This document shows, piece by piece, positions 23,517-61,019 of a stretch of DNA of 64,000 nucleotides (the first letter of the stretch is position 1; the number at the start of each line of letters is the position of its first letter). This DNA is from Shigella phage MK-13. The position numbers and the translations under genes are program-made. The stretch lies in the sequence record MK509462. One strand, written 5' to 3'. The notes beneath the pieces were generated by a model. The model was given only the letters and a program-made list of their open reading frames with translations. It made no database searches and was not told where the DNA came from.

Positions 23517-24026
23517 TTACTTGTCAGGGTTCACTAAAACAGGGGTGGATACCAGTTCGCCGTTCTTCACAGAATGCTGGACTACAGCACACTGATCGAC
23601 CATGCGATATACTTCAATTCCAGCAGCCAGCATTTCAATAATGCCGTCTGTGATTCGGTACGGTATATTGTAGATGACCTTCTTGATAGCGCAGCTTTTG
23701 ATTATCAGCTGAGTACAAACAGGGCATGGGCTGTGTGAGACGAACATCGTCAGATCAACGCGGTTGTCCAATGCTTCAGGGATGCGCATCAAAGCGTTCT
23801 CTTCTGCGTGGACAACCCCGACTGATACCAACTCACCGTCTACTTCCTGCTCACAGACATTAGGAGCGCCAGGAGCAGTCCCGTTCCAACCGATGGCAAC
23901 AGGTTGGTCGGTCTGTTCATCAACGATAACACAGCCGACCTTCAGGCGCCGAGCATAGCTGGACAGTGCATATGCATGAGCCGAGCGCATGTGCGCAAAC
24001 ATCATACGGGGCTTGATAGTCATCAC
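23517..24026 (-). CDS. dCMP deaminase (T4 cd-like)
   Basis: Zinc-binding cytidine/deoxycytidylate deaminase motifs HAEENA and SPCPVC. Confidence 0.75.
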   Translation of the reverse strand: MMTIKPRMMFAHMRSAHAYALSSYARRLKVGCVIVDEQTDQPVAIGWNGTAPGAPNVCEQEVDGELVSVGVVHAEENALMRIPEALDNRVDLTMFVSHSPCPVCTQLIIKSCAIKKVIYNIPYRITDGIIEMLAAGIEVYRMVDQCAVVQHSVKNGELVSTPVLVNPDK

Positions 24027-24744: not shown

Positions 24745-24779
24745 CTCTTAATAAACTAAGGGGAAGTATATACTCCCCC
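24745..24779 (-). terminator. Hairpin (ggggaag-tatata-cttcccc type) with T-rich tail on the minus strand
   Basis: GC stem with TATATAC loop between minus-strand genes; approximate coordinates. Confidence 0.4.
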
Positions 24780-24805
24780 TTCTTCAATAACCGCTGAATC
24801 TTTAT

Positions 24806-25144
24806 TCAGAGATAAGACTTACCGAGTTCAGTCAGGCGGTAGAACGTCACCTCAGTGTTCGGCCAGTTCACGTACGAGCCGTCATGAACCATTGAGCCAG
24901 CTGGTTCAATCAGCCCTTTGGCCAACAGGGAAGCCCCAGTGCGGGTATCCCACGGATCACCTTTGACGGAGGTGAAACCACCAGCGTTCGGGCATACCTG
25001 GAACGTCCAGACGGTGTTGCCCTTGTCATTGGCCCAGGATTTGGGATGCAAGTACCGTTCACCATAACGGCGATGACCTTTCTCAAAGTTCTCTATTCCG
25101 TAGAGAACCAAGAGTTGGTGCCCTGTAATACGCGGCTTTTTCAT
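24806..25144 (-). CDS. Hypothetical protein
   Basis: ORF 24806..25237; start moved to the internal ATG that forms an ATGA overlap with the upstream gene. Confidence 0.35.
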   Translation of the reverse strand: MKKPRITGHQLLVLYGIENFEKGHRRYGERYLHPKSWANDKGNTVWTFQVCPNAGGFTSVKGDPWDTRTGASLLAKGLIEPAGSMVHDGSYVNWPNTEVTFYRLTELGKSYL

Positions 25145-25458
25145 AACAATACCCCTTTCAGAGCCAAAACAGAAAGCACACCGATAATCAACCATGTCGG
25201 GATAATCGGCTTGCAATTCATGTGGGTTATCCCACATGTAATCTCTGGGCTGCCTTGTATAGAAACATGGTCGGCGGTTGCTCTTAATGTCATCACACTA
25301 CCCATCAATACGATAGGTCTGACGTAATAGCCCGTTTCTGTTCTTTTCACGATACAAGGAGAGGAGAAACGCAAGTTGGGATCTCCTCCCCGATAACCCG
25401 TGAACTCCACCTTCTCCACTTCAGAAGGCACTTTCTGACCAGGAAAATAAATTTTCAT
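25141..25458 (-). CDS. Small protein with C-terminal TM helix
   Basis: 105 aa; C-terminal [19 protein letters not shown]. Confidence 0.35.
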
Positions 25459-26033
25459 ATTTCAATCCCCAGATTGGTATAGAGCAGCTCGGCCAATGTC
25501 ACAGGGCGCTTGAATTGTTCCCAGCTGCAGTTCAGGTATTCGCGTTCTTCACGCATTTCGCCGTGAAGATGACCATGGATATTATACGCCCAGCGGTCTA
25601 ATTGATAAGGAACGTGAGTGGTCAGCACACGACCAACCGGAGTGTCACGCTCATACATGGCACCGAAGGAGCTAATCCATCCCTCTTGATACAGCTGCAT
25701 CAACATCTTGAAGCTGTCATGGTTGCCTTGCGCCACCCTGATGATAAAGTTCGGACGCCAGTCATCGGGAACTGGGCGGCGCTTGAACTCATCAATGTTC
25801 CGCTTGGCACCCTCGCGCATCAGGCGAATGAACCCCTCAGCCCCGATGAAGCAGATGTCGCCTGCAAGTTCAAGGACGTCTCGGGACTTCAGTCCCTGAT
25901 AGATACTGTCAATGACCGCAGCGTCGTGGGCTTCCTGTGTGTCGAACCCACGGGGCTTGAAGATCTTCTTGTGTCCAAGGTGGGTGTCGCCCAGATACTT
26001 TACAATTCCTGCCATTATGGTCTCCTCAACCAT
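25455..26033 (-). CDS. Calcineurin-like metallophosphoesterase
   Basis: GDTHLG, GDICF, GNHD and HGHLHG motifs in canonical order. Confidence 0.65.
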
Positions 26034-26341
26034 TCTAAAATCGGTACGTTCACAAATCCTTTATGCCAGCGATGTGGTTTGTGACCTCTGTTGTGTTCGA
26101 GCAAACACGTGTCCGGTGGGACACTGAAGTGGATGCCGTCGATGTCGTAATAATTCCCATCAATCAGAGTGTACACGTGGCCTTCAATCTGACTGTAATG
26201 GATCTCTGCTTGAGGGTACACGTGCTTCAACAACAGAGCAACCTGATAGCACTTCCCGTTCTTTCCAACATATTCGACATCCACCTGTTGTGGAAACACA
26301 TCCTTGACGAGGTTTATCAACATAGTGATGTCGTTCACCAC
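26015..26341 (-). CDS. Hypothetical protein
   Basis: 108 aa ORF. Confidence 0.4.
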
Positions 26342-26421
26342 AACAGACGGTTTTCATATCGCCTCTCCCGAGGATTCATTGGTGAAACAATGATACTCTA
26401 TCCTGGATATAGAAAAGCCCC

Positions 26422-26781
26422 TCACGGGGCTTCATCTTCTTCAGATTTGAATACTTGCCATCGGCCTATTCCACACCATTCTCCGGTGTTGTTAGAGTAG
26501 CGGGTTGTTCTGGGTCCACCGATTTCATATCCCCATTTGAAGAAACTCCATCTCTCTTTCAGGGTCGGCGGCTTGTTACCCACCGACAAGGAGCAAGCGG
26601 TGATCCAGCGCATGATACTGATGGCCTGGAACGCTGGATGAACAAACAGAGAGTACAGAACTCCCAACGTCACCACGAGGAATACTGTCACTGTTATGAC
26701 GCCGACGAATTCGAAGAATGCGCTCATCCTACCACCTCCAGACCCATCAAGTCTTCCATAGTCTTTTGAATGCGCAGCCAA
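26422..26781 (-). CDS. Membrane protein
   Basis: 119 aa with hydrophobic helix VGVITVTVFLVVTLGVLYSLFV; true start may be the internal Met. Confidence 0.35.
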   Translation of the reverse strand: MAAHSKDYGRLDGSGGGRMSAFFEFVGVITVTVFLVVTLGVLYSLFVHPAFQAISIMRWITACSLSVGNKPPTLKERWSFFKWGYEIGGPRTTRYSNNTGEWCGIGRWQVFKSEEDEAP

Positions 26782-27356
26782 TCAAGCGCGGCGTCATAAC
26801 GAGGATCATGATAGACCATGCCTTCCAGTTCCCACGCCTTGATGCCAGCGTAGCGATCCTGTTGCCCGACACCCTTCACCCAGCTCACGATGTCGAAGGT
26901 GTGGTGGTAATCCCATGGCTCGTTGGAGTCCTGCTTGCACGTCACCTCAATGATGTGCTGAGCCTTGCGCAGATCGAACAAGTTACGGTCACACCAGTCA
27001 ACCGAGCGCGGGTCTACCCCAAGACGATGGCATCCCTTGCGGATTTCATCGGCCAGCTGGAAGATAGAGATGTCCTGCTCAGTCGGGTATAGACTGACGG
27101 CGCGAGCCGCATCACACGGGTTGCGTTTACCCGTCCCCAACCACCATTCTACCGTCCCCTGGTCCTTCACGCGACCGAGTTCGATCTGCTCTTTGACATT
27201 CAGCTTGATGAACGTCGTGCGCTCCTCAACCAGTTGCTGAAGAGTATAACGCTTGGTCAGGTCGGCGATGGTATGTGCCCAGGACAACACGACTGCATCA
27301 TCCCAGCGACCCAGAGTCTCGCTGTCGGCCACTGCCAAGAAGTTAGACTTGTACAT
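26724..27356 (-). CDS. Hypothetical protein (possible DEDD-type 3'-5' exonuclease)
   Basis: 210 aa; weak DxE (ADSET), H..FD and Y...D spacing reminiscent of DnaQ-like exonucleases; low confidence. Confidence 0.3.
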   Translation of the reverse strand: MYKSNFLAVADSETLGRWDDAVVLSWAHTIADLTKRYTLQQLVEERTTFIKLNVKEQIELGRVKDQGTVEWWLGTGKRNPCDAARAVSLYPTEQDISIFQLADEIRKGCHRLGVDPRSVDWCDRNLFDLRKAQHIIEVTCKQDSNEPWDYHHTFDIVSWVKGVGQQDRYAGIKAWELEGMVYHDPRYDAALDWLRIQKTMEDLMGLEVVG

Positions 27357-27971
27357 TTACGCCTCCTCGTCGATGATTTCTTGTTCATCTTCGACAATCA
27401 TGATACCATCTTCAATCAGATCCGACAGATCCATCAGATCATCATCGAACCCGTCTCCTTCCCTGATATAGAAGACTGGGACGACACGACGGCGGGTCTC
27501 TTCATACACGCTTTCAGCGATCCGGTTAATATGGCGCACTACGCTGTAGAGGTTCAGACCACCGATGCCACAGCCGATAGCAGGCAGGCCGACATAGACG
27601 GTTTCGTCTTTAGTTGCTTCCACAATTTCGTGAACCTGCTCAAACAGGGTCTGAACAGAACTGATGACAGACGGCATGCGGGCATTCGGACCTGGATAGA
27701 ACTGAGTGTAGAGGTTCGCGCCCCAAACGCCCTTGCTGTGGTCGAATGCATAGGACATGCCACCCAGGCGTTGCTCTGGACCACGAGGGTCGTTCGCATC
27801 GGCTTCACGCAGGGCGGGGAAGTTGTTGCCGATATGCAGAGCAATACCCGCGCCCATGGTAGACCAGCAGTTGGCACCATGGGCAAAGATGTTGATCAGA
27901 TTAAAGCTGCAGGCGGCTTTCAGTAAATCACCACCGTTGATTACATATGTGGTCATGCGTACTGTCTCCAT
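27357..27971 (-). CDS. Macro domain protein (ADP-ribose binding/processing)
   Basis: HGANCWSTMGAGIALHI matches the macro N-x(4)-GGG-VxxAI region and VGLPAIGCGIGGLN matches the PAISTG-VYGYP region. Confidence 0.5.
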   Translation of the reverse strand: METVRMTTYVINGGDLLKAACSFNLINIFAHGANCWSTMGAGIALHIGNNFPALREADANDPRGPEQRLGGMSYAFDHSKGVWGANLYTQFYPGPNARMPSVISSVQTLFEQVHEIVEATKDETVYVGLPAIGCGIGGLNLYSVVRHINRIAESVYEETRRRVVPVFYIREGDGFDDDLMDLSDLIEDGIMIVEDEQEIIDEEA

Positions 27972-28195
27972 TCAATAATGCTGTTGTCAATGCATTTAAC
28001 GTAGAAGATGCCAGAACGATGACGACAGTCGGACATCTGTATGATGAAGTTGTCACCGTTGCGCACAAGCGTACCAACATGGATACCCCGCGCTGCCAAA
28101 CGAGAGATGATCTCTTTGCTCAGTCTGTCCATGTAACCCGCAACAGACGCAGGCTCAAAACAACGCTCAAACAGGTTTTCAAATTCTGGGTTCAT
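27953..28195 (-). CDS. Hypothetical small protein
   Basis: 80 aa ORF. Confidence 0.4.
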   Translation of the reverse strand: MNPEFENLFERCFEPASVAGYMDRLSKEIISRLAARGIHVGTLVRNGDNFIIQMSDCRHRSGIFYVKCIDNSIIEWRQYA

Positions 28196-28220
28196 TTTGT
28201 CTTACCAAACAAGGGGTCAA

Positions 28221-28238
28221 GGCGGTAATGATACCGCC
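28221..28238 (-). other. Intergenic hairpin ggcggtaatgataccgcc flanked by T-runs
   Basis: 6-bp GC stem; TTTTTCTTC on plus strand; TATTGAAGAA motif adjacent on the minus strand. Confidence 0.4.
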
Positions 28239-28245
28239 TTTTTCT

Positions 28246-59786: not shown

Positions 59787-59870
59787 TGGAGCGGGAGAGC
59801 AGGATTCGAACCTGTCCAGTGATCGTCGCCGATGATCAGTCGGCTACTGTCCAACCCCTATGGCTCCCGC
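59787..59870 (-). tRNA. tRNA-like gene, atypical (anticodon unresolved; GAT if the central hairpin is the anticodon arm)
   Basis: Hand-folded: 7-bp acceptor gcgggag/ctcccgc, T-loop TTCGAAT, encoded CCA, 5-bp hairpin gccga-ctGATca-tcggc; one extra nucleotide between T-stem and acceptor and a long variable region. Confidence 0.35.
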
Positions 59871-60093
59871 GAAATAAGGACGGGCTTCACACCCGATTGA
59901 GCATTTGATCTGCCGTAGCCCAACTCCCCGCGCTTCTCAGCGCCGATTGGTTAACTGGCGACCAGTGCCTTCTGGTTCGATCTCCTGGAACTTTACAGGC
60001 TTTGCGCCCGACCATTTCTGGAAGTTGGGGCATCGTTTCCGATGTGGAGTCACCCCATTTTATACACAGCGTGGCTGCAACGCTTACTGTGTT

Positions 60094-60177
60094 TGGTGTG
60101 AGTGGATGGATTCGAACCACCGCGCTGTTACGGGGAGATTTACAGTCTCCTGCATTCGACCGCTCTGCCACACTCAC
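60094..60177 (-). tRNA. tRNA-Tyr (anticodon GTA), class II with long variable arm
   Basis: Hand-folded: acceptor gtgagtg/cactcac, anticodon arm ggaga-ctGTAaa-tctcc, T-arm ggtgg-TTCGAAT-ccatc, encoded CCA; anticodon loop matches E. coli tRNA-Tyr from memory. Confidence 0.7.
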
Positions 60178-60187
60178 ATTTGGTCTA

Positions 60188-60251
60188 CCGCTGCGTGCTG
60201 GGCCACGCTCGAGGACATCGGCCATCCTTCCTCAGCTAATCCACGCAGCGG
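60188..60251 (-). other. Long hairpin (10-bp inverted repeat ccgctgcgtg / cacgcagcgg, about 44-nt loop) adjacent to tRNA-Tyr
   Basis: Inverted repeat seen directly; possible processing signal or small RNA. Confidence 0.35.
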
Positions 60252-60434
60252 CAGATTTGTTTCAGAGTGTCCGGTGTAGCAACCCGTGAGGTGCGCACTA
60301 CTGTAGCCTCTACACTCTGAATTTGGTGGGCGTTACTATCGTCGTCTTCGGATTCCGTTCGGCTATTGGACAGAGGCTTGGAGCTTGTCGGTCGCGTACT
60401 TCGTGCCTATTCACTTTCGTTCACACCCATTGTC

Positions 60435-60510
60435 TGGCGACGATGACAGGACTTGAACCTGTGACATATGGATTAACAGTCCACCGTTCTACCGACTGAA
60501 CTACATCGTC
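60435..60510 (-). tRNA. tRNA-Asn (anticodon GTT)
   Basis: Hand-folded canonical cloverleaf: acceptor gacgatg/catcgtc, D-arm gttc/gaac, anticodon loop ctGTTaa, T-arm acagg-TTCAAGT-cctgt, encoded CCA; near-identical core to E. coli tRNA-Asn from memory. Confidence 0.75.
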
Positions 60511-60939
60511 TTTATCCGTGCTTGTTCGCTTCAATCGCCCTTAATTGGGCATCAGCGTCAGCTTTGGTGTCATGTGTACCAAGAACCTTCGTCTTGGTGT
60601 GGTCAAGGACAACCCACTTGTCACCTCGCTTTTCAACAAACTCGACAATCTCTTTGTTGTCGGTAGCGAGGCCATCCCACTCAGCAATAAAATCACCGAA
60701 CGTTTTCATCATACTCACCAATTGTTTATTGAACAACTGGTTTATTTAGGTGCTCCCAAGGCGGTATTTGAATCCCGCGATCCCATCACACCTGCCGTAG
60801 ACCGGAGCTTGCTGGCAGTCCAACAATGTTTGGCGGGGTTTGAGGATTTTCACCTCACCTGCTGGGTTTGGCCGCCCAGCCGTTCTCTATGAGGATTCGC
60901 TGTCCGGACAACTATCCCTTAAACTATCGCCCCTCAATT

Positions 60940-61019
60940 TGGTTGGAGGAGAAGGATTCGAACCTTCAACGGCTGCCGCCATCCCCTCAGGGAATGTCTA
61001 CCCCTTCCATCATCCTCCA
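60940..61019 (-). tRNA. tRNA, isotype uncertain (possible anticodon TGA)
   Basis: Perfect 7-bp acceptor tggagga/tcctcca, perfect T-arm gaagg-TTCGAAT-ccttc, encoded CCA; D and anticodon arms fold ambiguously by hand. Confidence 0.45.

Follow-up and report, generated by a model that had tools for sequence, protein, structure and literature searches.

A DexA orthologue and a small aq_1665-like metallophosphoesterase in the accessory early-gene region of an Agtrevirus phage

A DexA-type exonuclease and a small metallophosphoesterase are encoded in the part of this phage genome that is flanked by the topoisomerase II genes and the gene for dCMP deaminase, and we read this part, with a probability of about 0.7, as an accessory early-gene region of separate, independently inherited enzymes and not as one machine. 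The window analysed here, 64,000 nt of DNA (MK509462), belongs to an Agtrevirus phage of the Ackermannviridae and is 97% identical at the DNA level to Salmonella phage P46FS4 and Shigella phage Ag3. The original prediction had tentatively joined the two enzymes and a neighbouring macro-domain protein into one nucleic-acid end-processing module. Both open reading frames were found on the minus strand at the predicted positions, and their identities were borne out, one as a calcineurin-like metallophosphoesterase and the other as a DEDD(h) exonuclease. The joint module was not: a hairpin lies between the two gene cassettes, the spacing of the genes varies, and the pairing was not seen in 62 viral loci outside this phage family.

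Both genes are real and ordinary, and near-identical Ackermannviridae phages already carry their annotation. Their proteins share 99–100% identity with those annotated in sequenced Agtrevirus phages; in P46FS4 and Ag3 the pair is named 'DexA exonuclease' and 'putative serine/threonine protein phosphatase'. Our analysis established the family membership, catalytic residues and fold of the proteins as well as the order and phyletic distribution of the genes; the activities and substrates discussed below are inferred.

The DexA exonuclease and the adjoining macro-domain protein

Sequence comparison identifies the 210-aa product of 26724–27356 (minus strand) as an orthologue of T4 DexA, a predicted DEDDh 3′–5′ exonuclease. 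The absence of any exonuclease profile hit for this frame had been named as the outcome that would refute the prediction; the profile searches did give hits, to the PHROG family phrog_255 'exonuclease' (5.3e-54) and to the T4 DexA crystal structure (PDB 8KEL), the latter at 4.5e-5 when the sequence was searched alone and, across its whole length, at 1.2e-14 when a family profile was used. Eighteen of 21 relatives matched PF16473 (best 1.6e-15); the window protein alone scored 17.9 bits, under the Pfam cut-off of 27. What had been noticed as weak DEDD-like spacing proved to be the complete catalytic set, all five DEDDh residues being present in order (ExoI D11-x-E13, ExoII D128, ExoIII H183-x4-D188) and invariant in the 21 relatives.

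The homology with T4 DexA (exonuclease A; PDB 8KEL/8KEN; PF16473, Rv2179c-like) is full-length at 25% identity, and D11, E13, D128, H183 and D188 correspond to the catalytic D7, E9, D119, H186 and D191 of the T4 enzyme. The two proteins are of similar size, and both are encoded by early accessory genes near topoisomerase II genes. They differ in that the window protein has 17 residues fewer at its C-terminus, and in that W152 and D169 of T4 DexA, reported to recognize 5hmC, are replaced by H151 and Q166. Phages of this kind have DNA with hypermodified thymidine, not 5hmC (PMC11721090), and the replacement of the 5hmC-reading residues fits this difference.

The DexA of the window would act as a two-metal DEDDh 3′–5′ exonuclease that trims DNA at its 3′ ends, releasing mononucleotides. 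If T4 is a guide, the enzyme may return host DNA fragments to the nucleotide pool and resect ends in recombination. A role in host-DNA degradation, as had been suggested for the region, is documented for T4 DexA (PMC12153337); the part of that suggestion that concerned a joint module with the phosphoesterase found no support.

The macro-domain gene (27357–27956, minus strand, 199 aa) abuts the DexA gene. In transcriptional order the DexA gene comes after the macro gene, downstream of it and not upstream as had been put. The product of the macro gene resembles DarG (NCBIfam DarG, 4.7e-9; PADLOC DarG, 2e-8; PDB 5M3I, 0.006), and the gene is homologous to tk.4 of T4-like phages (tblastn 1e-13 to 2e-6, 33% identity). 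T4 Tk.4 is AdfM, an anti-DarTG2 factor (bioRxiv 10.1101/2025.11.20.689424). In contrast to DarG, the window protein is devoid of the C-terminal DarT-binding half (36 bits versus a cut-off of 250), and it differs from both DarG and Tk.4 by an acidic C-terminal tail. On these sequence grounds it is probably a DNA ADP-ribosyl glycohydrolase and probably an anti-DarTG2 factor, which would strip ADP-ribose from DNA and so counter DarTG2. The earlier idea of an anti-defence function thus holds for the likeness of this one gene to an anti-defence factor, but not for the three genes as one module.

A small metallophosphoesterase of the aq_1665/T5.034 clade

The gene at 25455–26015 (minus strand) encodes a putative small binuclear metallophosphoesterase of 186 aa, which by its sequence belongs to the uncharacterised clade of aq_1665 (PDB 1XM7) and phage T5.034. 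It is 100% identical to ORF152 of P46FS4 and matched the PHROG family phrog_547 'phosphoesterase' (4e-44). Translation most likely starts at the ATG at 26015 (M7, giving 186 aa) and not at 26033: MAG opens all homologues, and the ATG has a GAGGAG ribosome-binding site in front of it and overlaps the upstream stop as TAATG. The protein had been credited with all four signature motifs; the motifs are indeed all present, but the superfamily has five of them (DxH, GD, GNH(D/E), H and GHxH), which read here, numbered from M7, GD10xH12, GD53, GN98H99D, H134 and GH147xH149 (plus H151). Residues D10, H12, D53, N98, H99, H134, H147, H149 and H151 did not vary across 34 aligned relatives with identities of 27–73%. 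Since all the metal ligands are conserved, the protein is very probably an active hydrolase.

When searched alone against Pfam, the window protein hit no metallophosphatase model at E ≤ 1; 15 of the 34 relatives matched PF00149/PF12850 (Metallophos/Metallophos_2). Likewise, PDB searches with the single sequence or a close-family profile returned nothing significant, and only a broader family profile succeeded, reaching 1XM7 over the full length at 1.3e-19. At E ≤ 1e-3 the family numbers 1,645 cluster representatives, and it was found in at least 738 phage records. An AlphaFold model folded as a four-layer α/β sandwich (pLDDT 79), of which the C-terminal third is of low confidence (pLDDT 39–74). 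1XM7 again headed its PDB matches in Foldseek (probability 1.00), ahead of LpxH, Mre11 and YfcE, and phage metallophosphatases in BFVD matched it with TM scores of 0.65–0.86.

Aquifex aeolicus aq_1665 and T5.034 are similar in size to the window protein (173–195 aa) and have the five motifs in identical order; T5.034 is 28% identical over 94% of the query (tblastn). Unlike these two, the Ackermannviridae proteins have an extra helical insert of ∼30 residues (roughly residues 58–90) between motifs II and III, because of which most relatives align in two stretches. 1XM7 is a structural-genomics entry; searching the literature on it, aq_1665 and AQ1575 yielded nothing on function, and a CASP14 paper that names T5 together with 'phosphoesterase' turned out to deal with an unrelated 2H-type domain.

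Two nuclease types were considered and rejected as the identity of the protein. Both turned up as weak and distant hits when the family profile was searched. Mre11/SbcD (∼3e-6) covered the N-terminal half alone, and no SbcC gene is adjacent; a PdeM-type 'Nuclease MPE' (0.018) was also seen, but the corresponding model TIGR04123 reached 18.4 bits, its cut-off being 150, and no ligase gene is adjacent. The profile also matched GpdQ; its weak matches to Rv0805 (0.011), ApaH (0.037) and 2NXF (9e-4) were at the level of the superfamily.

The serine/threonine protein phosphatase name under which GenBank carries the gene in P46FS4 and Ag3, as well as T5.034, is extremely unlikely to describe the enzyme. 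The PPP signatures GDxHG, GDxVDRG and GNHE are missing, and GDTHLGH, GDICF and GNHD stand in the protein instead; the family profile found no lambda-phosphatase, PP1 or PrpA chain at E ≤ 1. T5 does have a true PPP-type enzyme, but this is T5.035 (GDIHGC, GDLIDRG), the neighbour with which T5.034 is paired; T5.034 itself is without PPP motifs, and a T5.035 homologue is absent from the window. We conclude that the window protein is not a PPP-type protein phosphatase and, from the gene context described below, not a dedicated partner of DexA either. The GenBank label, widespread for the window gene as for T5.034, is an over-transfer, and 'metallophosphoesterase, aq_1665-like' would be the better name.

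Two cassettes and the distribution of the three genes

As predicted, two genes separate the phosphoesterase gene from the 210-aa frame. One encodes a YunG-like protein (26015–26341, minus strand; PF24591, 1.1e-43), whose usual start, the ATG at 26357, is put out of frame by an additional A in this sequence: the alignment has AAAA at 26351–26354 and AAA in P46FS4 and Ag3. The other encodes a predicted membrane protein of 101 aa (26422–26727, minus strand; phrog_2531, 3.9e-36; membrane protein in the Ag3 annotation), and its start overlaps the DexA stop (ATGA). Upstream, a DUF7234 gene (27953–28195, minus strand; PF23881, 1e-42) overlaps the macro start by ATGA and is the first gene of the macro–DexA cassette. 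On the other side, the start of a DUF7618 gene (25141–25458, minus strand; PF24594, 1.6e-53) overlaps the phosphoesterase stop, and a phrog_4677 gene (24806–25144, minus strand; 1e-53; 112 aa in P46FS4) is the last of the phosphoesterase cassette.

A terminator-like hairpin at 26414–26433 (minus strand; 8-bp stem, MFE −16.2 kcal/mol, z = −2.8), followed by UUUUCUAU, lies between the DexA and phosphoesterase cassettes and is conserved in P46FS4 and Ag3. Two further intergenic gaps hold stable hairpins on the same strand, one where the phosphoesterase cassette ends (24758–24781; 10-bp stem, −16.6 kcal/mol, z = −2.9) and one upstream of the DUF7234–macro–DexA cassette (28219–28240; 9-bp stem, −15.4 kcal/mol, z = −3.7). 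A scan for sigma-70 promoters gave five sites versus 6.4 expected in shuffled sequence; we therefore claim no promoter.

DEDDh exonucleases require a 3′-OH, and one could picture the phosphoesterase nicking DNA or removing 3′-phosphates, with DexA then degrading from the clean 3′-OH and the macro protein completing a single DNA end-processing module. The nucleases Mre11/SbcD and PdeM do figure among the distant matches of the phosphoesterase family, and the phosphoesterase and DexA genes lay on the same strand, 0.6–2.4 kb apart, in all 18 Ackermannviridae loci recovered. We nevertheless consider such a module quite improbable. The terminator-like hairpin puts the two genes in different cassettes, the intervening genes differ and the spacing varies over that range within the Ackermannviridae, and phiEa2809 has no phosphoesterase in the interval. 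Outside the family, 62 unrelated viral loci encode a relative of the phosphoesterase, and in none of them does a homologue of DexA or of the macro protein occur within 10 kb. T5-like phages possess the phosphoesterase but not DexA, and in T4-like phages it is the reverse. T5.034 and phiR1-37 g187 have no exonuclease neighbour, and PhiW-14 carries both genes, but not close together. The PdeM model stays at 18 bits, far from its cut-off.

Record counts also show that either gene often occurs without the other, Salmonella phages having 399 records of the phosphoesterase and 161 of DexA, and Escherichia phages 341 of DexA and 159 of the phosphoesterase. Within the Ackermannviridae, the three genes may still cooperate in a lineage-specific manner, since phosphoesterase, DexA and macro gene were syntenic in 18 of 18 loci, all of them recovered via the phosphoesterase.

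Candidate roles of the phosphoesterase and wider meaning

Taken as an enzyme in its own right, the phosphoesterase would have as its likeliest substrate class a nucleotide-type phosphodiester or phosphomonoester, a tentative suggestion that we base on a single observation, namely that its relatives recur among genes of nucleotide metabolism and replication. Specifically, 23 of 61 loci have a ThyA or ThyX gene no more than 6 kb away, with helicase, PolA and ATPase genes also nearby, and in the window the dCMP deaminase gene is 1.4 kb away. The 2.2-kb contig of a distant relative, P0036, held no informative neighbours. Thymidine hypermodification was discarded as a function, the published pathways containing no phosphoesterase.

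Two more specific roles were weighed against this reading. Mycobacteriophage A10ZJ24 Gp48, a metallophosphoesterase of the Gp48/Bxb1 gp47 type, has been described as a DNase that acts in counter-defence (PMC12287305), and on this precedent the window enzyme might be a host-DNA nuclease for host shut-off and defence evasion. Its location in the early-gene region and the distant Mre11/SbcD profile matches agree with this. The five superfamily motifs are shared with these early phage proteins. However, the mycobacteriophage type has ∼255 aa compared with 186 aa here and is not specifically related (hhalign probability 0.85%; BLASTP E = 0.044 over 31 residues). We therefore rejected Gp48/Bxb1 gp47 as the family of the window protein and regard it as a functional precedent, not a family assignment. 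The 186-aa protein is also without a DNA-binding or capping domain, and we think the nuclease role quite unlikely.

A counter-defence role in which the enzyme cleaves a nucleotide-based signal of host immunity or stress (cyclic nucleotide, Ap4A or ADP-ribose derivative) appears very unlikely. The accessory region, where the cassette adjoins that of the probable anti-DarTG2 gene, would suit such a function, and cyclic-nucleotide, Ap4A and ADP-ribose hydrolases belong to the superfamily, being seen here as the weak matches to Rv0805, ApaH and 2NXF. Those matches are superfamily-level only, though; the protein matches no PADLOC model and no known anti-defence family, and its relatives, which occur broadly in the vicinity of genes for thymidylate synthase, speak for a housekeeping role in nucleotide metabolism.

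At its broadest, the clade could be one of host-takeover or counter-defence enzymes, either nucleases that open host DNA for DexA-type scavenging or hydrolases of nucleotide immune signals, and in the Ackermannviridae perhaps loosely cooperating with DexA and the anti-DarTG2 macro protein; we hold this to be unlikely, and prefer the reading of separate enzymes in a shared accessory region. DexA itself has long been known and its structure has been solved, and the discovery value of the two genes is limited. The uncharacterised aq_1665/T5.034 clade of small phosphoesterases is common in phages. As a DexA from a hypermodified-thymidine phage that lacks the reported 5hmC-reading residues, the window exonuclease is of interest with regard to base-modification specificity.

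Identity of the phosphoesterase and the exonuclease

The window phosphoesterase (25455-26015, minus strand) was matched at 4e-44 by phrog_547 'phosphoesterase', while its score against the NCBIfam PdeM model was 18 bits (cut-off, 150). From 11 close relatives a profile was built for an exhaustive HMMER search; at E ≤ 1e-3 it returned 1,645 cluster representatives, mostly of 155-200 aa, of which 34 (27-73% identity) were used for a family alignment. The columns invariant in all 34, i.e. D10, H12, R22, G52, D53, G97, N98, H99, H134, P136, H147, H149 and H151, include every metal and phosphate ligand of the calcineurin-like superfamily. The resulting 34-member profile matched PDB 1XM7 (Aquifex aq_1665, a structural-genomics protein) over its full length at 1.3e-19; much weaker matches, to the N-terminal half, were obtained with Mre11/SbcD (∼3e-6), GpdQ, Rv0805, the PdeM-type 'Nuclease MPE' and ApaH. 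1XM7 was also the sole PDB match below 1e-3 for an AlphaFold model of the protein (pLDDT 79, weak beyond residue 130), followed by LpxH, Mre11 and YfcE, and many uncharacterised phage 'metallophosphatases' in BFVD matched this model with TM scores of 0.65-0.86. The predicted calcineurin-like identity is thereby borne out. The profile search proposed with it gave a divided answer: 15 of the 34 relatives match Pfam Metallophos and Metallophos_2, whereas the window protein has no Pfam match at E ≤ 1. M7 (ATG 26015) is the most likely translation start, because every homologue begins with MAG and because this ATG is preceded by GAGGAG and overlaps the upstream stop codon.

By megablast against GenBank phages, window 24800-28200 is 97.1% identical to Salmonella phage P46FS4 over 100% of the query, and 96-97% identical to Shigella phages ChubbyThor, Gloob and Ag3; all four are members of Agtrevirus (Ackermannviridae). 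The phosphoesterase, the exonuclease and the adjoining macro-domain gene have all been annotated before now in such near-identical genomes, where the names 'putative serine/threonine protein phosphatase', 'DexA exonuclease' and 'Tk.4 protein' are used. P46FS4 ORF152 and ORF155 share 100% and 99.5% protein identity with the window phosphoesterase and DexA respectively. The first of these names does not fit, as the PPP signatures GDxHG, GDxVDRG and GNHE are absent from the window phosphoesterase. The phage T5 relative of this protein is T5.034, whereas the PPP motifs are borne by the adjacent T5.035, a homologue of which was not found in the window; judged by these motifs, the GenBank label is therefore an over-transfer. 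In the T5 locus (L005 2632-4016), T5.034 sits directly after T5.035, a true PPP-type phosphatase, and one annotated name serves both. Another candidate family, that of a mycobacteriophage phosphoesterase for which DNase activity and a counter-defence role were recently demonstrated (PMC12287305), was rejected since the two proteins are not specifically related.

The original prediction that the 210-aa ORF (26724-27356, minus strand) encodes an exonuclease held, given its profile matches and catalytic residues. It is matched by phrog_255 'exonuclease' at 5.3e-54, and T4 DexA was found in the PDB at 1.2e-14 by a profile of 21 relatives that did not include T4. With the single sequence, T4 DexA (8KEL/8KEN) was the sole PDB match (4.5e-5, residues 9-207), and PF16473 (Rv2179c-like 3′-5′ exoribonuclease) matched weakly over the whole domain (E 0.0026; 17.9 bits, cut-off 27); 18 of the 21 relatives match PF16473, the best at 1.6e-15. 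[quoted passage not shown] T4 residues W152 and D169, reported to recognize 5hmC, are replaced by H151 and Q166, and Ackermannviridae DNA contains hypermodified thymidine (5-NeOmdU), not 5hmC (PMC11721090); it is therefore plausible that the base preference of the window enzyme differs from that of T4 DexA. Thus, both genes are present as first observed, and both enzyme identities were right.

Gene order, hairpins and cassettes

The minus strand carries every gene in window 23.1-32.5 kb. Listed as they are transcribed, the genes downstream of topoisomerase II, assigned from profile matches and the P46FS4 annotation, are DUF7234 (27953-28195), macro domain (27357-27956), DexA, a 101-aa membrane protein (26422-26727), a YunG-like protein (26015-26341), the phosphoesterase, DUF7618 (25141-25458), a phrog_4677 protein (24806-25144), two small ORFs and then dCMP deaminase (23517-24026). 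Most junctions show ATGA or TAATG overlaps and good ribosome-binding sites. Only three intergenic gaps occur in the region, and GC-rich, stable hairpins (-15 to -17 kcal/mol; z -2.8 to -3.7) lie in all of them, on the minus strand, at 24758-24781, 26414-26433 and 28219-28240, splitting the genes into cassettes. The hairpin at 26414-26433, between the membrane-protein and YunG-like genes, holds the upstream gene's stop codon in its loop, has a U-rich tail and is followed by UUUUCUAU; it is kept in P46FS4 and Ag3. Its position places DexA and the phosphoesterase in two adjacent cassettes, not in one tight operon.

The gene at 26422-26727 encodes a predicted single-pass membrane protein of ∼100 aa, and its start shares an ATGA with the stop codon of DexA. 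At the corresponding post-DexA position, Taipeivirus (43% identity) and phiEa2809 (similarity not detectable) each have a small ORF, which suggests a conserved positional pairing. In the YunG-like gene, AAAA directly follows the usual ATG (26351-26357, minus strand), compared with AAA in P46FS4 and Ag3. The extra A places this ATG out of frame, so that it opens an ORF of only 57 aa (26184-26357), and GTG 26341 is where the YunG-like frame starts. The extra A may be a sequencing error in the homopolymer or else a genuine frameshift, which could also weaken translational coupling into the phosphoesterase gene. Elsewhere in the window, a four-tRNA cluster (Ile-GAT, Tyr-GTA, Asn-GTT, Ser-TGA) lies at 59787-61019 on the minus strand.

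Variation and co-occurrence of the two genes

Functional coupling of the phosphoesterase and DexA, originally proposed as a nucleic-acid end-processing module, is not supported; five lines of evidence speak against it. The first is the split into cassettes. The second is variation within Ackermannviridae, where the gap between the two genes ranges from ∼0.6 to 2.4 kb. In P46FS4 an additional ORF of 381 nt separates the macro gene from DexA (L001 6556-6936), and Taipeivirus is missing the YunG-like gene; its phosphoesterase (53% identity vs 90% for DexA) diverges faster. Phage phiEa2809 retains macro-DexA, but the whole interval from topoisomerase to dCMP deaminase is free of a phosphoesterase gene. 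Even near-identical phages differ here in gene content, which marks the region as a hotspot of gain and loss. Ag3 has another gene in place of DUF7618, no 24023-24424 gene, and an additional ORF between its two topoisomerase genes (variant sites, L002 3342-3755 and 8971-9417).

Third, 80 loci encoding a phosphoesterase relative were obtained by scanning IMG/VR. All 18 Ackermannviridae-like loci contain DexA, macro and phosphoesterase genes, while a homologue of window DexA, T4 DexA or macro was found within 10 kb in none of the 62 non-Ackermannviridae loci (24-36% identity). Fourth, the phosphoesterase occurs in 738 GenBank phage records, ∼500 of them from T5-like phages, and DexA in 856, mostly from T4-like phages; counts by organism (phosphoesterase 399 and DexA 161 for Salmonella phages, 159 and 341 for Escherichia phages) show that each commonly occurs without the other. 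Finally, PhiW-14 encodes DexA plus a structurally similar phosphoesterase, but neither gene lies within 6 kb of the other.

Macro gene and phosphoesterase neighbourhood

The macro gene is present in 2,694 phage records, which makes it the third accessory gene here with a distribution of its own. It matched DarG models (NCBIfam 4.7e-9, PADLOC 2e-8), and its product, which has an acidic C-terminal tail, matched the DarG macrodomain structure 5M3I. T4-like tk.4 genes match it at ∼33% identity, and T4 tk.4, renamed adfM, is reportedly required for DarTG2 resistance (2025 preprint, bioRxiv 10.1101/2025.11.20.689424). The suggested anti-defence function may therefore hold some truth for this DarG-like tk.4/adfM homologue, but not for the phosphoesterase-exonuclease pair.

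Clustering of ORFs within 6 kb of 61 non-Ackermannviridae phosphoesterase relatives revealed no neighbour shared by more than 12 loci. ThyX was found in 12 and ThyA in 11 loci, the two sets not overlapping, so that a thymidylate synthase is nearby in 23 of these 61 unrelated viral contigs (L028-L088; a raw count, without a background rate). Other recurrent neighbours were a helicase, a family A DNA polymerase, a KaiC/RecA-like ATPase, DUF932 and a second metallophosphatase, the latter adjacent in eight of the 61 loci. These genes, and the dCMP deaminase 1.4 kb from the phosphoesterase in the window, place the clade in a replication and nucleotide-metabolism neighbourhood. Because the neighbour counts carry no background rate, it is only tentatively, and from gene neighbourhood as the sole basis, that we prefer a nucleotide-type substrate for the phosphoesterase.
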